The position numbers and the translations under genes were made by a program. The notes under the pieces are model-generated. The model saw only the letters and a list, made by a program, of their open reading frames with translations, was not told the DNA's origin and ran no database searches. Below are positions 10,192 to 32,000 of a stretch of DNA of 32,000 nt, piece by piece. Origin of the DNA: Microcystis aeruginosa NIES-843 (GTDB lineage Bacteria > Cyanobacteriota > Cyanobacteriia > Cyanobacteriales > Microcystaceae); the NCBI RefSeq assembly GCF_000010625.1, contig NC_010296.1, positions 5,490,001-5,522,000 of the forward strand, given 5' to 3'. Every line of letters starts with the position of its first letter. The first letter of the stretch is position 1.

Positions 10192-10881
10192 TTAGCTTGT
10201 TATAACAGTCTCCTGATAAAGTTCATAAAAGTACGCAGCGATAAACTCAGCAATTTTTCTGAGAATATCTATTAAGATTTCTTCATCTGCATATTTTACA
10301 ATAAGACGATGAGCAACATCTAACATCATTTCATAATGATCTTCATTTTCGTCAATTTTCACATGAGCTTTAGCTCCTATTACAAAAGATTTGGAAAATT
10401 TTTCTGCAACTTTATCAATCACATAACCTGAAGATTGATCGGAATTCCATTCAACAAACAAAGAATATGCAACAGCAGGCAAAGAGCCAATCTCCTTAAT
10501 CTTATTTTTTAGATAATCTATCATTGCTTCTGTGGCTTGAAATGGCTGGATTTCAAAAACTTGTTTTTCAGTATATCCGTGTTGACGCAGATCTTTGATA
10601 AATAATAAATCGTGTGTCATTTCCTGTGCAGTATATCGACCCCATAGTCTTGCAGCTTCGTAGTCTTCATCAATCATATAAGCCAAAGCCAGTGCATCTG
10701 TTTGGCTAGTCAGGCGAATACGCTTGATGGTTTCAATTAAGTGGCGAACATAGTATTTTTCATTCAGCACTTGATTTTTATCAGTTAGGTGGCCGGCATA
10801 GGGAACTGTCATTATAATTTTGTTGACTTCTTGCTGGAAAAAAAGTTCAAGGTTTTTTCTCAGTTGCTCACGATTAATCAT
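10192..10881 (-). CDS. heme-oxygenase-like fold / iron-containing redox enzyme family protein (HDO-like)
   Basis: All-helical pattern with YVRHLIE, an ExxH (AQEMTHD), FVEWNS and H..DENEDHYEMM. Start taken at ATG 10879-10881, preceded by GGAG at 8-nt spacing; the ORF track uses GTG 10899. Confidence 0.55.
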   Translation of the reverse strand: MINREQLRKNLELFFQQEVNKIIMTVPYAGHLTDKNQVLNEKYYVRHLIETIKRIRLTSQTDALALAYMIDEDYEAARLWGRYTAQEMTHDLLFIKDLRQHGYTEKQVFEIQPFQATEAMIDYLKNKIKEIGSLPAVAYSLFVEWNSDQSSGYVIDKVAEKFSKSFVIGAKAHVKIDENEDHYEMMLDVAHRLIVKYADEEILIDILRKIAEFIAAYFYELYQETVITS

Positions 10882-11229
10882 GTTTTTTACTCCTGTCACG
10901 AAATAATTTAGGTTCTTTGGTTTGTCTTATGCAATGTACAGGTTTATAAGGAATGAAACTCTTATAGAGAAAGACATTTGGCGATTTTTGTTAATTGTTT
11001 TCGATCTAGAGCGAACTAATCAATTAAATCTCTTGCCAGATAAGGATTTAGTCCATTTATGCCACCCTATCGAACCATACTAAGTAACGAAGAACCATAA
11101 TTGATCAGATTTGAGAGCATCCCAATTTTGCACGTTAGCTGTTTTAAAGAGGAATAAAACTCTTGGGATGCCGTTACTTTGGGTCATGCTTTTACAAAAA
11201 CGGGATGCTCGCTCAGATTTCAGATTTGT

Positions 11230-11382
11230 CTACTTGAGGAGATAAAGTGATAGTGATGTTGTAGTTTTGCCTCCCTTAATGTTTGCAGATTCTTGTTCAT
11301 CTACTTTTGCTGGATTATCACCATTTAATTCATTGACTTTGATGTCAGACGTTGGAAGTTCATTAACTTTGATGTTAGACAT
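11230..11382 (-). CDS. 50-aa candidate RiPP precursor peptide with double-glycine leader (not in the ORF track)
   Basis: Hand translation gives MSNIKVNELPTSDIKVNELNGDNPAKVDEQESANIKGG|KTTTSLSLYLLK*. AGGAGG (complement of 11392-11397) lies 9 nt upstream of the ATG. It is on the same strand as, and upstream of, the HDO-like and sulfotransferase genes. Confidence 0.5.
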   Translation of the reverse strand: MSNIKVNELPTSDIKVNELNGDNPAKVDEQESANIKGGKTTTSLSLYLLK

Positions 11383-11452
11383 TGGAATTATCCTCCTAAT
11401 TAAGGAAAAAGTAATTGGCTTGAGATTGGGTTTACCTCACTCATCTGTCCCT

Positions 11453-11481
11453 ATATTAATCGCTCTCCCAGCAGATGACAA
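11453..11481 (-). promoter_or_regulatory. sigma70-like promoter for the small ORF
   Basis: On the minus strand: TTGTCA (11476-11481), a 17-nt spacer, then TAATAT (11453-11458). The -10 element lies 71-76 nt upstream of the ATG at 11382. Confidence 0.4.
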
Positions 11482-11500
11482 CCCCCTGGAAGGATGATTT

Positions 11501-11529: not shown

Positions 11530-11661
11530 TTTTCAAGGACAGTCCCCAACGAGAAAATAAGGTTTTCCGGTTATTTCGCCAGCAACTTTGAGATGAAAAC
11601 TGAGTTTTGCCCCCTAAATCCTGAACATAAATAAACTATTTATAGCGGTTTTCAGTCTAAT

Positions 11662-11838
11662 ATGGAGGCTATTTTCAATACTCCAATGTCTGCGAATCAC
11701 CTCGGCGTGTTTTTGGGCATCCGCTGCTAAACTACTGATGAAGAAGCGAATTTCTGTCGTAGTTTTATTCCACAATTGGCGGACACTGCGAACTATGACT
11801 ACTACAGCTCTAACCAGTAATTTAGATAGGTCAATCAC
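11662..11838 (-). pseudogene. ISAs1-family transposase, C-terminal remnant
   Basis: ...TTEIRFFISSLAADAQKHAEVIRRHWSIENSLH matches the conserved ISAs1 (H-repeat-associated) C-terminal block. Similarity stops after SLH, and the N-terminal ~300 aa are absent. Confidence 0.55.
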
Positions 11839-16758: not shown

Positions 16759-17947
16759 ATGGAAAAAGCCTATTCTTACCGATTTTACCCCACACCCGAA
16801 CAAGAGTCGCTATTGCGGCGCACTTTGGGCTGTGTAAGATTAGTTTACAACAAAGCTCTCCACGAACGAACACAAGCATGGTACGAAAAGCAAGAAAGAG
16901 TAGGCTACGCTCAAACTTCTTCAATGTTGACCGATTGGAAAAAACAAGAAGAATTAGACTTTTTAAACGAAGTTAGCTGTGTACCTTTACAACAAGGGTT
17001 AAGACACCTACAAACAGCTTTCACTAATTTCTTTGCTGGTCGTACTAAGTATCCTAACTTTAAGAAAAAACATCAGGGAGGAAGTGCCGAATTTACCAAA
17101 TCTGCTTTTAAATTTAAAGACAGACAAGTCTATTTAGCTAAATGCACAGAACCTTTACCTATTCGATGGTCAAGACAAATACCAGAAAGCTGTGAACCAA
17201 GCACAGTAACAGTCAGATTACATCCATCTGGACGTTGGCATATTTCAATTAGATTTGATGACCCAACGATTAAGCCATTACCAGTAACAGATAAAGCCAT
17301 CGGAATTGACTTAGGAATTAGTAGCCTCGTGATTACCAGCGATGGCGATAAAGTATCTAATCCTAAGCATTTTAAAAAGCATTATCAGAGACTGCGAAAG
17401 GCCCAAAAAAGCCTTTCTAGAAAACAGAAAGGGTCAAAAAATCGGGAAAAAGCAAGAATCAAAGTAGCCAAGATTCACGCTCAAATCACCGATAGTAGAA
17501 AAGACCATTTACACAAGCTAACCACTCAATTAGTTCGTGAAAACCAAACGATTGTGGTTGAGAATTTAGCCGTCAAGAATATGGTCAAAAACCCGAAATT
17601 ATCTCAGGCAATATCTGATGTAAGCTGGGGAGAAATCACTCGACAATTAGCCTATAAATGCCGTTGGTATGGGAGAAACTACATCGAAATAGATAGATGG
17701 TTTCCTAGCTCTAAAAGGTGTAGTAATTGCGGGTATATTGCCCTTGAAAATGCCGTTAAATGTTCGAGAATGGGATTGTCCAGACTGTGGGACGCACCAT
17801 GACCGAGATATTAACGCCAGTAAAAATATTTTGGCCGCAGGGCTTGCGGTGTCAGTCTGTAGAGCGACCATAAGACCAGAACAGAGTAAATCTGTTAAGG
17901 CAGGTGCGAAAAATCCTTCGGGAAAGAAGCAGAAACCCAAATCGTGA
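16759..17947 (+). pseudogene. tnpB: tnpB (RNA-guided endonuclease, IS605 OrfB family) interrupted by a frameshift
   Basis: MEKAYSYRFYPTPEQ...LLRRTLGCVRLVYNKAL... is the classic TnpB N-terminus. The frame changes near 17738-17745: ORF1 ends ...[13 protein letters not shown]...*, and the +1 frame continues [35 protein letters not shown] (zinc finger/RuvC-III). Confidence 0.85.
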
Positions 17948-18055: not shown

Positions 18056-19801
18056 ATGTTGCAAGGATGGATTCAAATCGCGCTCACGATCCTGATAATC
18101 GTGGCAATCACCCCCTTTTTCGGGCGCTATATGGCTAGGGTTTTCATGGAACGGAGAACCCTACTCGACCCACTGTGCGATCGAGTCGAGAGTCTTCTTT
18201 ACACCTTCGTCGGGGTGAAAGGGAAAGAGAATATGACCGGCTGGCAGTACACCCGCGCCGTTCTCTACAGTAACGCGGTAATAGCAATTCTGGTTTTTTC
18301 CCTGATTGCGGGCCAAGGAGTCCTTCCCCTCAACCCGACGGGGATCCCCGCCCCTTCTTGGGACACCACGCTACATACGACGATTTCCTTTATCACCAAC
18401 AGCGACCAACAGCATTATTCCGGAGAAACCACCCTCAGCTACGGGAGTCAGATCTGGGGTCTCGGGTACCAGATGTTCACCTCGGCCGGAACCGGTCTAG
18501 CGGTGGGGATCGCCTTTATTCGGGGACTGACGGGGCGACCGTTGGGCAATTTCTACGTGGATCTGATCCGAGCGATCACCCGTATCCTCTTACCGATCTC
18601 GATCGTGGGGGCAATTGCCCTGATCATCGCCGGAGTCCCGGAAACCCTCGCGGGCCCGGCGATCTTGCCGACGCTAGAAAACCCCAACCTGAGTCAGGCG
18701 ATCGCCCGCGGTCCAGTGGCCCACTTCGAGATTATTAAGGAATTGGGAGAAAACGGCGGTGGCTTTTTTGCCAGCAACTCGGCCCACCCCTTTGAAAACC
18801 CGAACGGATTCGTCAATCTGGTGCAGTTGGTAGCGATTCTCTCGATTCCCACCTCCCTGATCTATACCTACGGGGTTTTCGCCGATAATCTCAAGCAAGC
18901 TCGGTTAATCTATCTAATTCCCCTCGGTATCTTCATCGGCTTTACGATCATCACAGCGATCGGGGAATATAACGGCAACCAGGCGGTTAACTCCCTGCTA
19001 GGGGTGGAGCGAGCGGTTAACTTCGAGGGCAAAGAAGTACGCTTCGGTTGGGCGCAATCGGCCCTGTACGCGGTAACTACCACGGCCACCATGTGCGGTG
19101 CGGTGATCGCCATGCACGATTCCTTGATGCCGAACGGCGGCTTCGCCACCCTCTCGAATCTGTTCCTGCAAATCGTTTTCGGCGGCCAGGGAACCGGCAC
19201 CGCCTACCTGTTTGCCTATCTGATCCTTGCGGTATTCGTCACCGGGCTAATGGTGGGGCGAACCCCCGAATTCCTCGGGCGCAAAATCGAGAAACGGGAA
19301 GTGGTGTTAGCGAGTTTTTTAATTCTGCTGGTTCACCCGATCGCCATCCTCATCCCCGGAGCGATCGCCCTTGCCTTTCCCGACTTTCAGGGCATCAGTA
19401 ACCCCGGCTTTCACGGATTATCTCAAGTTATCTACGAGTACGCTTCCGCCGCCGCCAATAACGGGTCGGGATTCGAGGGACTAGGGGATTCCCAACCTGC
19501 GCCGCTTGCGATTGCGGCTGGTGCCAAACCGACGATTACCGCTCTCTGGTGGAATCTAAGCGCCTGCTTCAGTTTACTCGCCGGACGGTATATCCCGATC
19601 GCTGCCCTGCTCTTGTTAGCCGATGGGATGTCCCGCAAACAACCGGTTCCCGCCACCACCGGAACCCTCCGCACCGATACCGGACTCTTTACCAGCGTGA
19701 CGGCGGGGGTGATTTTAATTCTCGGTGCGCTCACTTTCTTGCCGATATTAGCCCTCGGGCCGATCGCGGAAGCCTTTCAAATCACCCGGATGATCGGCTA
19801 G
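18056..19801 (+). CDS. kdpA: potassium-transporting ATPase subunit A
   Basis: 581 aa and polytopic. [10 protein letters not shown]...[10 protein letters not shown]...[10 protein letters not shown]...[20 protein letters not shown] are KdpA hallmarks. Confidence 0.95.
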
Positions 19802-19810
19802 GAGTTTAGA

Positions 19811-20028
19811 CAGGGTTTGCGGCAAAAAGTTTTTCCGGGGGGTAGGGTGTGGGGTGTGGGGTGTGGGGTGTGGGGTTTTACCAGTTTTGAGGTGGCCAAT
19901 TACCTAATTTTCAGGGAAAAAGTGCCTAAATTTCCCCCCGATCACTCCCAGATACAGTACTTTTTGATTGACAAAAGGTCTAAAAGTCTTACCCAACAAG
20001 GTTTTTAGATTTATTCAACCAGCCCTAG
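19811..20028 (+). mobile_element. MITE copy B, filling the kdpA-kdpB spacer
   Basis: cA|GGGTTTGCGGCAAAAAGTTTTTCC...(GGGGTGT)x4...CCAATTACCTAATTTTCAGGG...CCAACAAGGTTTTTAGATTTATTCAACCAGCCC|TA. Confidence 0.75.
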
Positions 20029-20035
20029 ATAATTT

Positions 20036-22195
20036 ATGAGAACGAACAAAGGAAATTCTAAATCCTCCCGCCCGTTGCGAGTGCCGAGAGGTCGCCGGGA
20101 CGACCGCCGCCACACCCCCAAGGTAAACCGGACAGGTCTCTATCAACGCGCGATCCGGCAGTCCTTCCTCAAACTCGACCCGCGCATCGCCGTGCGTAAC
20201 CCGGTCCTGTTCGTGGTCTGGTTAGGAACGATCGTCACGGCCCTGGTCACGATCGACCCGCATCTATTCGGCACGATCGCCGGGGATAGGGGACAACAAC
20301 GGCTACTTAACGGCATCATCACCCTCATCCTCTTCTTCACGGTGCTGTTCGCCAACTTCGCCGAGGCGATCGCCGAGGGGCGAGGAAAAGCCCAGGCCGA
20401 TGCCCTGCGCTCCACCCGCAGCGACACGATGGCCCGGAAAATCCTTGCCGACGGCTCGATCGAGTCGGTCAGTTCCACGGCCTTGGGTCGGGGCGATCGG
20501 GTAAAACTGGTGGCCGGGGACGTGATTCCCGCCGACGGGGAAGTGATCGAGGGAATCGGTTCGGTGGATGAATCGGCGATCACCGGAGAATCGGCCCCCG
20601 TCCTCAAACAACCCGGAACCGACATCGCCAGTTCCGTCACCGGCGGCACCAGGCTTCTCTCGGACGAGTTGACAGTGCGGATCACTCAAGATCCCGGCCA
20701 GGGTTTTATCGATCGCATGATCTCCCTCGTGGAAGGGGCCGAGCGCACGAAAACCCCCAACGAGATCGCCCTGACGGTACTTCTGGCCGTGTTAACCCAA
20801 GTCTTTCTAATTGTCGTGGCCACGATTCCGCCGATCGGGAACTATATCGCCGGTTTCCTGGAAACGAGCCTCGGGCCGGCGGTTGCGGATACCTTTCGGG
20901 CCGGTTCCAGTATCGCCATCTTGATCTCGCTCCTCGTCGCCCTCATTCCCACGACGATCGGCGGTTTATTGAGCGCGATCGGCATCGCCGGGATGGATCG
21001 TGTGGCTCAGTTTAACGTCATCGCCACCTCCGGGCGCGCGGTGGAAGCCTGCGGCGACGTGAATACCCTCCTTCTCGACAAAACGGGAACGATCACCCTC
21101 GGAAACCGACTGGCTGACGAATTTATCCCCGTGAACGGTCATAACCTCGAGGAATTAGCCCGCATCTGTCTAGCGGCCAGCCTTTTCGACGAAACCCCGG
21201 AAGGACGCTCGATCATTGCCTTAGCCCGGAATTTGGGCGCGAACCTCGATATCGATGGCCAACCCGGCGAGGGAATCGAATTCTCCGCTCGTACCCGCAT
21301 GAGCGGCACCGATAGGGCCGGCGAGGAATACCGTAAGGGAGCCGTAGACGCGATTAAAGGTTTCGTCCGTTCCCGCGGTGGTTCCGTTCCCGAAACCCTC
21401 GATGAGGCACAGGAAAGGGTTTCCCGTTTGGGGGGAACTCCCCTCGCCGTCTGTCGGGGTAACGATATCTACGGGGTGATCTATCTCAAGGACATCGTGA
21501 AGCCGGGATTAAAAGAGCGTTTCGACCAATTACGGCGCATGGGTGTGAGAACGATCATGCTCACCGGCGACAACCAGATCACGGCGGCGGTGATCGCGGC
21601 GGAGGCGGGGGTGGATGATTTTATCGCCGAGGCCACCCCAGAAGATAAGATCGAGGTGATCCGTCGCGAGCAATCCCAGGGCAAGTTAGTTGCTATGACG
21701 GGGGACGGAACCAACGACGCACCGGCACTGGCCCAGGCTAATGTCGGTGTGGCGATGAACTCCGGAACCCAAGCGGCGAAGGAGGCGGCCAATATGGTGG
21801 ATCTCGATTCCGACCCGACCAAGCTGATCGATTTAGTGACCATCGGCAAACAGTTACTCATTACCCGCGGCGCCCTGACCACGTTTTCGGTAGCCAACGA
21901 TATCGCTAAGTATTTCGCCATTATCCCGACGATTTTCGCCGCTGCCGGGATCGGTGCTTTAAACATCATGGGTTTGAAAAGCGCTCAATCGGCGATCGTC
22001 TCAGCCCTGATCTACAATGCCCTGATTATCCCCGTTTTGATTCCCCTGGCACTTAAAGGCGTTCAATTTCGCCCGCTCACCGCTGACCAACTATTGCGGC
22101 GCAATATCCTCATCTACGGCGTGGGGGGCGTGATTGCCCCGTTTATTGCTATTAAGATTATTGATGAGATAATTTCAGCGATCGGGTTGAGGTAA
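20036..22195 (+). CDS. kdpB: potassium-transporting ATPase subunit B (P-type ATPase)
   Basis: [11 protein letters not shown] phosphorylation motif, [22 protein letters not shown]. The basic N-terminal extension is typical of cyanobacterial KdpB. Confidence 0.95.
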
Positions 22196-22479
22196 TGGGA
22201 AAATCGGCAATATTTAAGCCTAGTTTATTCGGATTGAAGCACTCGAATCGGGATTTTAGCCAAAAAGAAACATGGGGTAAAAATCAATTTAACTCCTCAT
22301 TTCCAGCTTCTTTGTGCGCTTACTTGGATGGGAAAGGACTGAAAAATGTATATCTGAAACTTGACGAAAATTTAAAAATTCAACCTGCGGAGTTAAGTAC
22401 AAAAGAGTTATACGGTCTAGCTCCCGATTCCGATCATTTATTTTATGCTTTCGAGAGTCAATTTAGAGGAGGGAGCAAA
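22195..22479 (+). pseudogene. 5' stub (~95 codons) of a probable type II restriction endonuclease gene, fused in frame to the MTase ORF
   Basis: The ATG overlaps the kdpB stop (TAATG). FGLKHSNRDFSQKETWGKNQFNSSFPASLCAYL resembles N-termini I associate with HindVP-type REases, a weak recollection. It runs without a stop into the SD/ATG of the MTase. Confidence 0.35.
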
Positions 22480-23038
22480 ATGATCACAATCGATTTATTC
22501 GCTGGTTGTGGTGGTTTATCTTTAGGTTTCCAGAAAGCGGGGTTTACTATTGTGGCCGCATTTGATAATTGGATACCTGCTATAGATGTCTATAGAAATA
22601 ACTTTAGTCATCCGATATTTAATGTCGATTTATCTAGAGAATCTAGCCAAGAAATATTTGCTCAATATAATCCTGAGATTATTGTCGGCAGCCCTCCTTG
22701 TCAAGACTTTTCCAGTGCGGGTAAGAGAGACGAGGGTTTAGGACGAGCGAATCTAACGCTCACATTCGCTGAAATTGTAACTGGAGTAAGTCCGCAATGG
22801 TTTGTTATGGAAAATGTGGATAGAATTGAGAAAAGTAAAATACTCACTCAAGCAAAACAAATTTTTAAAAGCCATGGTTATGGTTTAACTGAAAAAGTTA
22901 TTAATTCTTGTTACTGCGGAGTTCCTCAAACTAGAAAAAGATATTTTCTGATCGGTAAAATGAAGGAAGAAGATGATTTTTTAATCGATGAAATTAATGA
23001 AAATCTATCAAGTCAACCTCTGACTGTATTTGACTATA

Positions 23039-23149
23039 GCATTTCCTAAGCTAGTGAGGTACACCTATTTTTCTTCCCTTTTGCCTTCTGCCTCTTGCCT
23101 TTTGCCTAAAACCCATCACTTTTGTACCTCAGCAGACTGAAAAACGCTA
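23039..23149. mobile_element. 111-bp MITE inside the MTase gene
   Basis: Imperfect 25-bp TIRs: GCATTTCCTAAGCTAGTGAGGTACA vs the reverse complement of the right end, GCGTTTTTCAGTCTGCTGAGGTACA (17/25). TATA direct repeats lie at 23035-23038 and 23150-23153. Removing 115 bp joins ...TVFDY to MGKELDIEYYY in frame. Confidence 0.55.
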
Positions 23150-23435
23150 TATATGGGCAAAGAATTAGATATAGAATACTATTATAGACATCCTAGAAGC
23201 TATCAAAGAAGGGCGATATTCAGTATTTATGAACCTAGCCCTACTATTCGAGGAGTAAATCGACCAGTTCCCAAAACCTATCGACAACATCCCGGGGATG
23301 CTTGTCATCTTAAGGAAAAATTAAGACCGCTAACAACGAGGGAGCGAAGCTATATCCAAACTTTCCCTAAAGACTTTATTTTTGCTGGAACAAAATCTAA
23401 TCTAGAACAAATGATTGGCAATGCTGTTCCTATTA

Positions 23436-24385
23436 TAGTCATTTCAAATAAGTGTGAGACGAGGGAAAAATAAGGTAAAATCAAGAGAAACGAGCAACCC
23501 ATACAGAAAAATGTCTTATAGCCTAGACTTGAGAAAAAAAGTAATCGATTATGTAGAGAATGGGGGAAGCATAACCAAAGCCGCCGCTCTATTTAATATA
23601 GGAAGAGCGACGATATATAGATGGCTAGGTAGGGAAAAACTGGAAGCAACAAAGGTAAAACACCGTCAGAGAAAGCTGGACTGGAAAGCACTGTCAAAAG
23701 ATGTCCAAGAAAATCCCGAGGCAAGATTAAGAGACAGAGCCGAGAAATTTGGAGTGAGACCAAGTGCCATTTGCTATGCCTTAAAAAACATGAAAGTTAC
23801 CAGAAAAAAGAAGGAACTTCGTTATAGAGAAAGAAACCGAGAAGAAAGAATGAAATACTACAGAGTGCTGAGAGAATTGATTAAAATATATGGAAGTGAA
23901 AGCCTTGTATTTATTGATGAGTCAGGGTTTGAAGAATTTCAAGCCTGTTTTTATGCTTGGTCAAAAAAAGGGAAGAAAGTCTTTGGAGATAGACAAGGAA
24001 AACGAGGAAAAAGAGAGAACCTTGTCGCTGGTAGAAGAAAGGGAAAAAAAGACTTTATTGCACCGATGGTATTTACGAGAAGCCTGAATGCCGAAGGTTT
24101 TGAAGGGTGGTTATCTTTATATTTGTTGCCCTCTCTAACCATAACATCAGTATTAATTATGGATAATGCACCAATTCATCGGAAGACAGTCATTAAACAA
24201 CTGGTAGAGGAAGCAGGTCATCAGGTCGTGTTTTTGCCAAAATACTCTCCTGATTTAAATGATATCGAACATGATTTTAGTGCATTAAAGAGGGCAAGAA
24301 TGTATGCTCCTGTGGGGACACCCCTTGATGAAATTATTCGTACTTATTGTGTCGCCTAGTGTCTCGTTCTTATTTGAAATAACTA
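23436..24385 (+). mobile_element. IS630-family insertion sequence (950 bp) with TA target duplication
   Basis: TIRs are TAGTCATTTCAAATAAG...GAGAC and, from the right end's reverse complement, TAGTTATTTCAAATAAG...GAGAC. Flanking TA at 23434-23435 and 24386-24387. Excision restores GNAVPINLARYVGQCILNY. Confidence 0.85.
23511..24359 (+). CDS. IS630-family DDE transposase
   Basis: N-terminal HTH (ITKAAALFNIGRATIYRWL). DDE residues lie in FIDESG, IMDNAPIH and SPDLNDIEHDFS. Start taken at MSYSLDLRKK; the ORF track starts at 23454. Confidence 0.85.
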   Translation: MSYSLDLRKKVIDYVENGGSITKAAALFNIGRATIYRWLGREKLEATKVKHRQRKLDWKALSKDVQENPEARLRDRAEKFGVRPSAICYALKNMKVTRKKKELRYRERNREERMKYYRVLRELIKIYGSESLVFIDESGFEEFQACFYAWSKKGKKVFGDRQGKRGKRENLVAGRRKGKKDFIAPMVFTRSLNAEGFEGWLSLYLLPSLTITSVLIMDNAPIHRKTVIKQLVEEAGHQVVFLPKYSPDLNDIEHDFSALKRARMYAPVGTPLDEIIRTYCVA

Positions 24386-24511
24386 TAATTTGGCTAGATA
24401 TGTAGGCCAATGTATTCTTAACTATGAATTGAAAAAAGGGAAAAAGACAACCTATCGACAACTACAGCTAAGTAAGTGGTTATAATTAAATTGAAAATAG
24501 ATTTTGTCTTT

Positions 24512-24585
24512 GATCCCCCCTTAATCCCCCCTTGATAAGGGGGGTGTCGATCCCCCCTTAATCCCCCCTTGATAAGGGGGGTGTC
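24512..24585. repeat. 2 x 37-bp tandem repeat, each unit a C6/G6 hairpin
   Basis: The unit GATCCCCCCTTAATCCCCCCTTGATAAGGGGGGTGTC is repeated exactly (24512-24548, 24549-24585). Confidence 0.9.
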
Positions 24586-24661
24586 TGATAATTTTTAACG
24601 CCTACCTACTTATTTTCTTGATTTACTGGCAAAAACAAATCTCCAAAAAACTCTAATTCTT

Positions 24662-24868
24662 ATGAAAGCAGCCCCTAGAAAATACCGATTTTTTGGGTAC
24701 ATTTTCTTAAATTTCTGTCTAACAATTCTTTTCTCCTCCATCGTTCAAGCTTCTACGGGAAGCACTATCGATAGGGGGCAAGCCTCTGCATTAACCCTTT
24801 TAGGATTAGTCGCCTTTGCTTTATTTATCTATCTGTTCTTGGTCATCTTTGTACCGGAGAGGTTTTAA
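24662..24868 (+). CDS. small two-TM protein with a KdpF-like C-terminus (KdpF/KdpG-type subunit)
   Basis: The C-terminal LLGLVAFALFIYLFLVIFVPERF* matches the KdpF consensus ending (..YL..AL..PE.F). It sits between kdpB and kdpC. Confidence 0.55.
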   Translation: MKAAPRKYRFFGYIFLNFCLTILFSSIVQASTGSTIDRGQASALTLLGLVAFALFIYLFLVIFVPERF

Positions 24869-24966
24869 GAGATTTCTGGCACAATTAATTTTTGAGAGTT
24901 CAAAAATGGGAAAAAGCAGAAAATCTCTAAATAGACTCTTTCATTGATTGTTGTTTATTCTTAATT

Positions 24967-25032
24967 CTCCTGACTCCTGACTACTGGCTCCTGACTCCTA
25001 ACTCCACCAACAAACTTTTTCAGTAAACCCTA
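24967..25032. repeat. CTCCTGA-type repeat module ending in a MITE-type terminus, directly upstream of kdpC
   Basis: ctcctgactcctgactactggctcctgactcctaactccaccaacaaactttttcagtaaacccTA; compare 12640-12702 and 29941-29974. Confidence 0.7.
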
Positions 25033-25035
25033 ATT

Positions 25036-25680
25036 ATGAGTTTTGCACGCGAGGCCGGTAGAGCCATCCGTTCTACCCTAGTTCTCTGGGTAATTACTGC
25101 CCTGATCTATCCTTTCTCGATGATCGCCATCGGTCAAATTCTTTTTCCCTGGCAAGCAAACGGGAGTTTAATTACCAATAATCAAGGTCAAGTGGTGGGT
25201 TCGGCTCTAATTGGGCAACCTTTCATCAGCGATCGCTATTTTAATAGTCGTCCGAGTACCACCAACTACAGTACGGCCGATCCGAAAAACGATCCTAACA
25301 AAGTCCTGCAAACCGGAATTTCGGGGGCGAGTAACCTAGCTCCCAGTAACCCCGCATTAATCGATCGCATTAAAGGAAAACCCGATCCCGATCCGGCAAA
25401 AGCTATACAGGGGGAGATTCCCCGATTAGAGAAAGGGGCAATTAAACCCACCGCGGCTCTGGTGTACACCTCCGGTTCTGGTCTTGATCCCCATATCACC
25501 CCGGAGGCCGCCAGAGCGCAGATCGAGCGGGTGGCGCGGGTGCGGGGATTACCGACGAATCAAGTGGAGATCCTCGTTACCAAAAACACCGACGAGCGCT
25601 TTCTCGGCATCTTCGGCGAACCGGGGGTTAACCTACTGAAACTGAATCTGGCTCTAGATGCGATCGCAAATACCCGATAG
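25036..25680 (+). CDS. kdpC: potassium-transporting ATPase subunit C
   Basis: N-terminal TM segment, then ...FPWQANGSLI...GSALIGQPF....YF.SRPS...SGASNLAPSNP...SGSGLDPHITPEAA..Q..RVA..RGL. Confidence 0.9.
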   Translation: MSFAREAGRAIRSTLVLWVITALIYPFSMIAIGQILFPWQANGSLITNNQGQVVGSALIGQPFISDRYFNSRPSTTNYSTADPKNDPNKVLQTGISGASNLAPSNPALIDRIKGKPDPDPAKAIQGEIPRLEKGAIKPTAALVYTSGSGLDPHITPEAARAQIERVARVRGLPTNQVEILVTKNTDERFLGIFGEPGVNLLKLNLALDAIANTR

Positions 25681-30964: not shown

Positions 30965-32000
30965 TTATTCTTCCTCCTCATCGGTTGTAGGGAATTTCAT
31001 ACTGGCCCAAGTTAACTGTTTTTGCGGGTCTTTTTCCGGTTCACTAAAACTCTCCTTGAGTTGTTCTTTCACCTGAGCAATATTGCCACTTTGAGCGGCA
31101 TTCTTTAGATCATAGACATAACGAGCATTTTCGATCGCTTCCTCTTTACTACGAGAACTAGACTCAAAGCATTTTTCTAGGTCTTTGTAAATACCCTTGC
31201 GAGAGATTTTTAGAAAATATTGACGTTCTGTATCGATCAGTTTAGCCAATAATTCTAGGTGCATGGAATCCTCGGCACAGATATCCGCGAGGATATCCCA
31301 TTCTTCACTCCCCAAAAGATTATTATCCGCTCCCGGTCGCGGGTCTTGAAAAGTTTCTCCAGTCACTTGTTTATAAATCTTCGGTAATTGGTCATCAAAT
31401 TCGTGCTTTTCTTCCCTCCAAATCCGGCGAATTTCGCTGAGTTCCTCCGTGGTAATTAGGGTAATATCTTTCATCTCCTCTGGGGCATTAGTACGCACGC
31501 TCTCCTGAGCTTCTAATACCCTTCTCAGCCAATATTCTCGCCATTGTTTAGTATAAGGACCGGGTATGGGTTCGATCGATATTTCTCCATTTAAGTTTCT
31601 TTCAAATAATTGTACTTTCCCAAAGATACGGCGAAAATCCCGTTTTGGTCGGTCATCTTCTATATCTAATTCGTTGCGAAGGTCTAAAAGCGGTTGTAAC
31701 CATTCTTTTTCTTGGTCATTCTGTATCATTGCCTCCATCGATTTATCTTTATTCACCAAAGTACAAACCCAACAACCAAAGCGCGAATCTCCACAGCTAG
31801 GAGTGGAAGTATCTACCACTAGGGGACATTCATTATCCGCAGTCGCTCCTCGATACATTGCTAATAATTCTTTGTTATCTCCTCCCCAGGGATTTTCCCA
31901 CTGCATTAAGTACATCCATACTTCATCAGTACGCCAATCTTCTATGGGAGTATAAACAAGTGAATTAATCAAGTGAGTATGAGGGCTAAGACGCTCCCTT
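30965..32000 (-). CDS. dndC: DNA phosphorothioation sulfurtransferase DndC, C-terminal ~345 codons (ORF continues past right window edge)
   Basis: ECPLVVDTSTPSCGDSRFGCWVCTLVNKDKSMEAMI is the DndC Fe-S cysteine block. The frame stays open from 31972 to 32000 (...RERLSPHTHLINSLVY). Confidence 0.7.
   Translation of the reverse strand, partial: RERLSPHTHLINSLVYTPIEDWRTDEVWMYLMQWENPWGGDNKELLAMYRGATADNECPLVVDTSTPSCGDSRFGCWVCTLVNKDKSMEAMIQNDQEKEWLQPLLDLRNELDIEDDRPKRDFRRIFGKVQLFERNLNGEISIEPIPGPYTKQWREYWLRRVLEAQESVRTNAPEEMKDITLITTEELSEIRRIWREEKHEFDDQLPKIYKQVTGETFQDPRPGADNNLLGSEEWDILADICAEDSMHLELLAKLIDTERQYFLKISRKGIYKDLEKCFESSSRSKEEAIENARYVYDLKNAAQSGNIAQVKEQLKESFSEPEKDPQKQLTWASMKFPTTDEEEE

Follow-up and report, generated by a model that had tools for sequence, protein, structure and literature searches.

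A 50-codon gene beside an MboA-like diiron oxidase in Microcystis aeruginosa: a probable precursor peptide with a predicted target at its C-terminal lysine

Within a 32,000-nucleotide stretch of Microcystis aeruginosa NIES-843 (contig NC_010296.1, positions 5,490,001 to 5,522,000; hereafter the window), an unlisted minus-strand open reading frame (ORF) of 50 codons raises two questions, namely whether such a short ORF is a gene at all and, if it is, which enzyme acts on its product. An earlier interpretation of the letters alone (the sequence-only reading) had taken it for a precursor peptide with a GG cleavage motif. From the comparisons reported here we consider it probable that the ORF encodes a precursor of the RiPP type (peptides made by the ribosome and modified after translation), that it belongs to a three-gene cassette with an MboA-like member of the heme-oxygenase-like diiron oxidases (HDO) and a sulfotransferase, and that the HDO oxidises the peptide at its C-terminal Lys.

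Translation of positions 11382 to 11230 of the minus strand gives MSNIKVNELPTSDIKVNELNGDNPAKVDEQESANIKGGKTTTSLSLYLLK followed by a stop codon. Everything that the sequence-only reading had described at the level of the letters could be confirmed: the unlisted ORF itself with its GG motif, the AGGAGG 9 nt 5' of the ATG (11397 to 11392), the motif IKVNEL present twice at a distance of 10 residues, the acidic leader (7 acidic against 4 basic residues among 38) and a tail after GG, KTTTSLSLYLLK, containing three Thr, two Ser and one Tyr. The 76-aa ORF that it had placed on the opposite strand also exists. The length of 50 codons is not significant by itself because 45 ORFs with 25 aa or more overlap the 4.4-kb stretch around it, and therefore the case for a gene rests on context and comparison. 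We ranked all 946 six-frame segments of the window with a hidden Markov model (HMM) of four cyanobacterial peptides from which Microcystis was left out, and the ORF came first (E = 0.06; runner-up 4.7). It also occupies the same position as the peptides of its cyanobacterial relatives, upstream of the orthologous HDO gene. Public pipelines call the 50-aa gene in three Microcystis contigs, and the cassette is at least 99.9% identical among several contigs of this genus. The neighbouring protein matches a Microcystis entry with 100% identity.

A second Microcystis allele (L071) is identical from the Shine-Dalgarno sequence through the leader, and again in the 3' flank and the hairpin that follows the gene. 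Over 305 nt, 6 of the 8 differences from the window fall in core codons 42-49 (P = 6e-5), and 5 of these 6 are non-synonymous, changing TTSLSLYLLK into TTKTSLYLVK. Homology between the two alleles starts exactly at the Shine-Dalgarno sequence. Because the sequence upstream of it is unrelated in L071, the antisense ORF can be ruled out as the real gene, and both the HMM and homology back the minus strand only. By these comparisons the 50-codon ORF is a real, conserved gene, small and of precursor-peptide type, in which the leader is conserved and the core varies.

The gene next to it encodes the HDO. Its mechanical ORF starts at a GTG (10899), and the likely true start is the ATG at 10881, which gives the 229-aa protein P0002. 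The protein has a weak match to Pfam PF14518, a heme-oxygenase-like 'iron-containing redox enzyme' family. Its AlphaFold2 model (pLDDT 96) has a heme-oxygenase-like fold, and Foldseek returned generic folds of this type only (3DDE, TenA, UndA, CADD, BesC) from a library older than the MboA entries. MboA was recognised as a relative in a sequence search against PDB, in which the single protein matched MboA with E = 7e-22 (phmmer, residues 41-227) and a profile of 53 family members matched the MboA chains with E = 3.5e-36. The closest characterised relative is MboA of mangotoxin biosynthesis in Pseudomonas syringae, which binds the carboxylate of the C-terminal Arg of a tripeptide on Fe1 and desaturates the Arg side chain; its second step, to the alkyne, requires the reductase MboB (Badding et al., JACS 2026, PMC13185094; PDB 9YPI/9YPL/9YPM).

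The two enzymes share the set of three His and three carboxylate ligands, an additional Asp and the Tyr base. Specifically, the MboA ligands E86/H89/D90/E143/H172/D176/H181 align to E93/H96/D97/E150/H179/D183/H188 of the HDO, and Tyr82, the proposed base of MboA, aligns to Y89. The ligand set and Y89 are invariant across 62 sequences of the family. The residues that bind the guanidinium in MboA (N57/D61/D139) correspond to T64/D68/S146, a replacement that fits a switch of substrate from Arg to Lys and makes the enzyme a variant of the MboA type and no orthologue. The clade is rare: out of 1.84 billion representative clusters, 18 belong to it at E <= 1e-30.

What the HDO may act on emerged from its neighbours elsewhere. 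A direct search of 5.8 billion proteins with the peptide returned a single near-identical allele as the only match, so homologues were reached via the neighbouring HDO. Genomes and metagenomes of many phyla gave about 65 loci with a homologous HDO. About 56 of them have near the HDO an ORF ending in [MLF]-D-[ILV]-[ILV]-K-stop, which may precede the HDO on its own strand, follow it closely in convergent orientation or lie at a distance of 1-3 kb; most of the remaining loci have short flanks. Some loci at first seemed 'peptide-less', an artefact of the distance limit and the fixed pattern, and most of these proved to have the tail once a profile was used for the search. All 38 distinct partner peptides have a C-terminal Lys, as does the Microcystis peptide, in which Lys is followed directly by the stop. 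Three residues that the search pattern left free are conserved as well, namely Gly (-5), Pro (-7) and Leu (-8). HDO and peptide co-occur across phyla, and the type of peptide follows the HDO tree. Comparison with the Pfam and NCBIfam models gave no match for any family peptide.

The carriers of this tail differ widely. Five cyanobacterial peptides share with the Microcystis peptide an M-x-x-IK..L start and the invariant GG. Their alignment has M1, I-K, L, G-G, L-x-L and the terminal K invariant, and the element kept at the C-terminus is L-x-L-[LV]-K; GG and the tail are separated by two to three short tandem repeats. In the relatives M-A-[ED]-IK-x-x-x-L occurs once. In the window, a tandem duplication spans the context of the start codon, with ACG in place of ATG in the second copy, and yields a doubled S-[ND]-IKVNEL; the internal repeat arose recently, when the start region was duplicated in tandem. 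The sequence-only reading had looked to an amphipathic core bracketed by Lys; the conserved part, and the probable target, is instead the motif L-x-L-[LV]-K at the C-terminus, including the final Lys.

The peptides of other phyla are about 60-75 aa long, and their N-terminal region is of another kind and helical. They end in …[AV]-[RK]-L-P-x-G-x-D-[ILV]-[ILV]-K-stop and lie upstream of the HDO or convergent downstream. The tail profile added a peptide of about 65 aa ending in …VRLPGGLDLIK-stop (L073) and, in Mycobacteriales loci, …VARLPFGMDVVK-stop. In the Mycobacteriales, as in a clade with DUF6445 and cytochrome P450 genes (…AGPVAMDVVK-stop), the tail is the C-terminus of a 170-330-aa tandem-repeat protein; such proteins, with units like PGLAGLA…, MPAGYP… and RSLRDEELRAELAD…, end in …D-V-[VI]-K-stop near the HDO genes. 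At the other extreme, six loci of one HDO clade have only a five-codon gene, MD[IT]IK, each with a strong Shine-Dalgarno sequence and with synonymous codon variation. Six such mini-genes were observed where 0.0003 were expected by chance. The C-terminal tag alone therefore seems enough for recognition.

Accessory enzymes next to the HDO-peptide pair vary with the clade. They include Lys/Orn N-monooxygenases (PF13434), proteins of the octopine dehydrogenase family, PhyH/JmjC-type oxygenases, P450 with DUF6445, carbamoyltransferases and, in cyanobacteria, a 2-oxoglutarate-Fe(II) oxygenase and HpaB, which suggests varied downstream chemistry on one common tag. Four of the six MD[IT]IK loci also carry an EamA exporter and a sulfotransferase, and the mini-ORF of L016 shares the reading frame of the EamA ORF at the latter's end.

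Enzyme and peptide also change together. Position -3 of the peptide is Tyr in Microcystis only and Asp in the relatives. At residue 54 of the HDO, 58 of 60 relatives have Arg and the other 2 have Lys, and only Microcystis has Leu; in MboA, whose tripeptide substrate has no residue at -3, it is Ile. Among the HDO positions conserved in at least 85% of the relatives, residue 54 is the sole non-conservative change specific to Microcystis. We read this as a putative contact between Arg54 and Asp(-3) that was replaced by Leu-Tyr in Microcystis. The change from Arg to Leu further suggests that Tyr47 would be unsulfated at the time of HDO binding.

The third gene of the cassette encodes a sulfotransferase that uses 3'-phosphoadenosine-5'-phosphosulfate (PAPS). 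It matches PF13469 (3e-11) and PF00685 (3e-7), and its family is mostly cyanobacterial, with members of about 375 aa. Its AlphaFold2 model has a pLDDT of 92.7, and the top 12 Foldseek matches are the tyrosylprotein sulfotransferases TPST1/2, at a modest TM of about 0.5. The sequence-only reading had named Tyr as a possible site of O-sulfation. In favour of this, a TPST-like enzyme is indeed adjacent. Against it, Tyr-sulfation sites typically lie in an acidic context, and Tyr47, within S-L-Y-L-L-K, has no Asp or Glu among the 15 residues on its N-terminal side and none on its C-terminal side. Moreover, three homologues of the sulfotransferase have genes for P450, UDP-glycosyltransferase and adenylyl-sulfate kinase around them and no peptide or HDO, and for these three contexts we rejected the idea that such homologues are flanked by peptides.

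Sulfotransferases of two unrelated subfamilies adjoin the HDO, one in Microcystis and one in the MDIIK clade; a single lineage common to both was rejected, as the two are unrelated in sequence (E = 0.25). The peptides of the MDIIK clade have no hydroxyl residue except the Thr of MDTIK, and two of its loci add a Lys/Orn N-monooxygenase. The independent recruitment of sulfotransferases is a hint that sulfation may take place on the oxidised lysine. For Microcystis, Tyr47 is an equally live candidate.

The GG motif (G37, G38) noted in the sequence-only reading is invariant in all six cyanobacterial members of the family. Double-glycine leaders typically have hydrophobic residues at -4, -7, -12 and -15 and an acidic residue at -8. 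The Microcystis leader fits this pattern with Ile at -4, Glu at -8 and Val at -12 and deviates from it with Ser at -7 and Pro at -15; the relatives come closer, with hydrophobic residues also at -7 and -15. When compared with Pfam and NCBIfam leader models of the bacteriocin, NHLP and Nif11 types, as had been proposed, none of eight family peptides gave a match, even at E <= 10. No C39-containing peptidase transporter (PCAT) was found in the 32-kb window or within 5-6 kb in the cyanobacterial relatives L001, L002/3/4 and L072. GG-dependent leader removal is plausible. Overall, the earlier interpretation is partly supported: the precursor with leader and GG stands, and the proposed targets and processing machinery need revision.

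From these observations we propose the following order of events. The HDO would recognise the tetrapeptide Y-L-L-K at the free C-terminus, whose carboxylate would sit on Fe1, with the Lys side chain directed towards Fe2 and its ammonium held by D68, T64 and S146. The O2-activated diiron centre could then oxidise the Lys side chain at C-beta/C-gamma, yielding beta,gamma-dehydrolysine by desaturation, for which MboA and VarO provide the precedent, or alternatively a hydroxylated product. The sulfotransferase would act next on the oxidised product, either at the new hydroxyl or at Tyr47. Finally, the acidic leader would be cut after GG, the probable agent being an ABC exporter with a peptidase domain whose gene lies elsewhere, to free the modified 12-mer or a shorter fragment with a plausible role as a Trojan-horse antimetabolite. 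The site and type of oxidation, the target of sulfation, the cleavage of the leader and any bioactivity are predictions. The biological role could be that of an antimetabolite, of a released amino acid or of a reactive handle on repeat proteins.

Several points weigh against oxidation of a RiPP-type precursor at its C-terminal Lys. The peptide gene is known here from sequence comparison, and the HMM E-value of the Microcystis peptide is by itself marginal (0.06 window-wide). K, D and the two aliphatic residues (positions 0 to -3) owe their invariance in part to the first search pattern; the later tail profile search was free of it. The co-variation of residue 54 with position -3 is a single evolutionary event, and the contact with the bound peptide is a prediction from the alignment. 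No protease or exporter is encoded nearby. A flavin/Fe2S2 reductase like MboB was not identified in the window, where several small ORFs are unannotated, and the full chemistry of MboA, up to the alkyne, is unlikely because no such reductase lies close by; the outcome of the HDO reaction is a guess. The partners that are repeat proteins of 170-330 aa also fit poorly with a small-molecule 'natural product'.

Other explanations share part of this evidence. The peptide may be a mere scaffold, comparable to pearlins, from which the C-terminal Lys, once oxidised and perhaps sulfated, is cleaved off as a free non-proteinogenic amino acid, so that the rest of the peptide would not be the product. That the tag alone is conserved on carriers ranging from 5 aa through about 60 aa to repeat proteins would be explained in this way, and the genes for Lys/Orn N-monooxygenase, opine dehydrogenase and aminotransferase in relatives point to chemistry at the level of the amino acid. 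However, the Microcystis cassette encodes no peptidase, diversification of the core is unexpected in a mere carrier, and the conserved GG implies that the released peptide matters, so that we regard a scaffold as unlikely. Alternatively, the product could be a bacteriocin-like double-glycine peptide, whose 12-residue tail is freed by a C39 transporter and O-sulfated at Tyr47 as in the RaxX/RaxST system, with the HDO not acting on the C-terminal Lys. The invariant GG with acidic -8 and hydrophobic -4 and -12 and the TPST-like neighbour speak for such a peptide, and Tyr at -3 occurs only in the lineage with this type of sulfotransferase. The missing PCAT/C39 in the window and in near relatives, the failure of the leader models, the non-acidic surroundings of Tyr47 and the P450 and glycosyltransferase neighbours of the sulfotransferase homologues speak against it. 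It also leaves the near-universal pairing of the HDO with x-D-x-x-K and the co-variation of R54L unexplained, and we hold it to be quite improbable.

A regulatory role was also weighed, in which translation of the small ORF, perhaps with stalling at its terminal residues, controls the HDO operon from an upstream ORF (uORF) and the peptide is no substrate. The ORF does lie upstream of the HDO with a stable hairpin after it, and in the clade of five-codon genes the mini-ORF lies 85-112 nt upstream of the HDO, a typical attenuator geometry. Yet at least seven loci have the peptide gene downstream of the HDO and convergent with it, the mini-ORF of L046 is downstream too, and elsewhere the peptide sits at a distance of 1.8-3 kb or is the last part of a 300-aa protein. 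The core is moreover hypervariable and the enzyme co-varies with peptide position -3, all of which leaves a uORF very improbable. That the ORF arose by chance or by misannotation, or that the antisense ORF is the real gene, might be suspected from the abundance of short ORFs in an AT-rich region and from promoter-like sites that are no more frequent than in shuffled sequence. The strong Shine-Dalgarno sequence, the family-wide homologues, the top HMM rank, the restriction of substitutions to the core and the lack of conservation of the antisense ORF in L071 effectively refute it. Oxidation of the C-terminal Lys of a RiPP-type precursor by the HDO is the account that we prefer.

When set against known systems, the proposed pathway resembles that of MboA in its homologous enzyme and in a predicted peptide substrate with a basic C-terminal residue. 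It differs from it in that the mangotoxin tripeptide is made by ATP-grasp ligases and the Microcystis peptide by the ribosome, in Lys for Arg with two of three side-chain binders changed, and in the absence of an MboB reductase and an MboE deiminase. The Microcystis cassette adds a sulfotransferase, and mangotoxin has nothing that corresponds to its leader, GG and variable core. A second related enzyme is VarO of the thiovarsolin pathway of Streptomyces varsoviensis, an HDO reported to be about 30% identical to MboA, which makes dehydro-Arg by placing a side-chain double bond in the basic end residue of short ribosomally derived peptides (Santos-Aberturas et al. 2019, PMC6511847); its timing and true substrate are unresolved. 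A 2026 review, in which HDOs are barely tied to ribosomal peptides so far, gives thiovarsolin as the only published RiPP pathway with an HDO (PMC13108848). The var cluster, with VarO compared by description only, has YcaO/TfuA thioamidation and a precursor with APR repeats, neither of which occurs in Microcystis, and Arg in place of Lys.

The remaining parallels are more distant. RaxX of Xanthomonas is a sulfated RiPP with Tyr in an acidic context, processed in a system of RaxX, RaxST and an adjacent PCAT, RaxB. The Microcystis locus shares with it a small GG-leader peptide and a PF13469-type sulfotransferase, unlike it lacks the acidic context of Tyr and the adjacent PCAT, and has the HDO as its conserved partner. 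In microcin C7, a Trojan-horse antimetabolite, the 7-codon gene mccA encodes a peptide whose C-terminal residue is modified by the adenylyltransferase MccB. The five-codon relatives would likewise be very short ribosomal peptides, with unrelated enzyme and chemistry, and if translated and modified they would be shorter than mccA. Pearlins, the precursors of 3-thiaglutamate, receive a residue from a PEARL ligase on a ribosomal carrier, and this residue is modified by an MNIO enzyme; here, too, chemistry would take place at the C-terminal residue of a carrier, with Lys genetically encoded and an HDO as the enzyme. A dehydrolysine lead, AFC-BC11 of Burkholderia, proved to belong to an unrelated lipopeptide pathway and was discarded. 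Our literature search found no prior description of the peptide family or of a Lys-specific MboA-like HDO. HDO-modified peptides as such are already known.

The immediate surroundings of the gene bear signs of rearrangement (Table 1). The hairpin 3' of the peptide stop has a minimum free energy of -31.9 kcal/mol (z = -3.27), and none of 200 shuffles is equally stable. Its sequence is the same in L071, and it is possibly an intercistronic element of stability or attenuation. A scan for intrinsic terminators found none, and Pfam, NCBIfam and Rfam hold no family for the peptide or the intergenic RNA. The insertion that resembles a miniature inverted-repeat transposable element (MITE) is missing from L071, where the ATG of the HDO lies about 154 nt past the peptide stop. 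Copies of it, 87-88% identical, occur in the Microcystis plasmids NZ_CP025929 and NZ_CP046974, and a search of PLSDB plasmids with the cassette itself gave no match other than this element. In three Microcystis contigs (L066, L068, L069) homology to the window starts about 130 nt past the peptide stop, near the insertion site. Just upstream of the cassette there is a 74-aa fragment of an ISAs1-family transposase (11614-11838, minus), which together with the MITE-like element suggests that the cassette lies in a mobile, rearranging region.

Elsewhere in the window, a seemingly interrupted kdp operon occupies 18056-25680 on the plus strand (KdpA 18056-19801, KdpB 20036-22195, KdpC 25036-25680). 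Between KdpB and KdpC are a split C5 cytosine methylase that carries part of a HindVP endonuclease (22195-23049, 23153-23473) and, at 23454-24359, a transposase of the IS630 family. A TnpB/IS605 OrfB gene with a Cas12f-like TNB domain is at 16759-17802 (plus), and a gene for the DNA-phosphorothioation sulfurtransferase DndC is at the window edge (30965-31972, minus).

Table 1. Features of the Microcystis cassette (window positions) and of related HDO loci (positions preceded by the locus)
Feature	Position	Strand	Remarks
Precursor/substrate peptide gene, 50 codons and stop	11230..11382	minus	translation, homologous peptides, HMM, public calls, core variation
Leader, codons 1-38	11382..11269	minus	ends in GG, codons 37-38 (11274..11269)
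Variable core, codons 39-46		minus	
C-terminal tag Y-L-L-K, codons 47-50	11244..11233	minus	conserved
Shine-Dalgarno sequence AGGAGG	11392..11397	minus	9-nt spacer to ATG at 11382..11380
Tandem duplication, 30 nt	11329-11357 / 11359-11387	minus	copies 90% identical
RNA hairpin, 16-nt arms	11115..11210	minus	starts about 20 nt past peptide stop; no Rfam match
MITE-like insertion, 198 nt	10905..11102		13-nt terminal inverted repeats; between peptide gene and HDO gene
HDO gene	10192..10899	minus	same strand as peptide gene, downstream; 229/235 aa
PAPS-type sulfotransferase, 382 aa	9007..10155	minus	36 nt downstream of HDO
Antisense 76-aa ORF, not a gene	11267..11497	plus	3' half upstream of Shine-Dalgarno sequence, unrelated in L071
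Cyanobacterial peptide MADIKLYNL…THGG-SFVDAVSFVEAVSFVEAVSFRHGLDLVK			upstream of HDO
Cyanobacterial peptide MAEIKIYNL…IHGG-LLYTEKLYAEKLYVEKLGGLDLLK			upstream of HDO
Cyanobacterial peptide MAEIKIYSL…IVGG-SMVTLGKGSMVTLGTGLDLVK			upstream of HDO
Cyanobacterial peptide MAEIKIYNL…VNGG-RLHEMSLLHEMSLLHEMSLLNHSHGLDLIK			upstream of HDO
MD[IT]IK genes	L011:5872-5889, L013:5882-5899, L015:5891-5908, L016:5898-5915, L022:5899-5916, L046:995-1012		ATG-GAY-AYN-ATH-AAR-stop
Tandem-repeat proteins, 170-330 aa	L014:2499-3020, L019:3-581, L026:2590-3084, L027:3024-4013, L054:1932-2987		
Further tandem-repeat proteins	L017:977-1849, L018:2-889, L020:3343-4200; L008:5016-5999		
Accessory-enzyme loci	L015:3668-4960 and L022		cluster C15
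Accessory-enzyme loci	L012, L021, L023-L025, L028, L030		cluster C1

The wider proposal, for which we see the chances as evenly balanced, is that the Microcystis locus belongs to an undescribed RiPP-like class found in cyanobacteria, Proteobacteria, Acidobacteria, Bacteroidota and Actinobacteria, in which an MboA-like HDO reads only a C-terminal x-[D/Y]-x-x-Lys-COOH and oxidises the Lys. The five-codon precursors MDIIK would then be the shortest known ribosomal natural-product precursors, and the Microcystis product would be a new sulfated, lysine-oxidised cyanopeptide. If this is true, an enzyme class that installs alkenes, alkynes and hydroxyls on unactivated side chains would have a genetically encoded and easily varied substrate, with a simple recognition rule, a four-residue C-terminal tag, and a predicted specificity pair in Arg54 and Asp(-3). 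A family of unannotated small genes, including those of five codons, would have been missed by standard ORF cut-offs. For bloom-forming Microcystis, whose peptide repertoire is relevant to ecology and toxicology, the cassette would add a candidate new metabolite.

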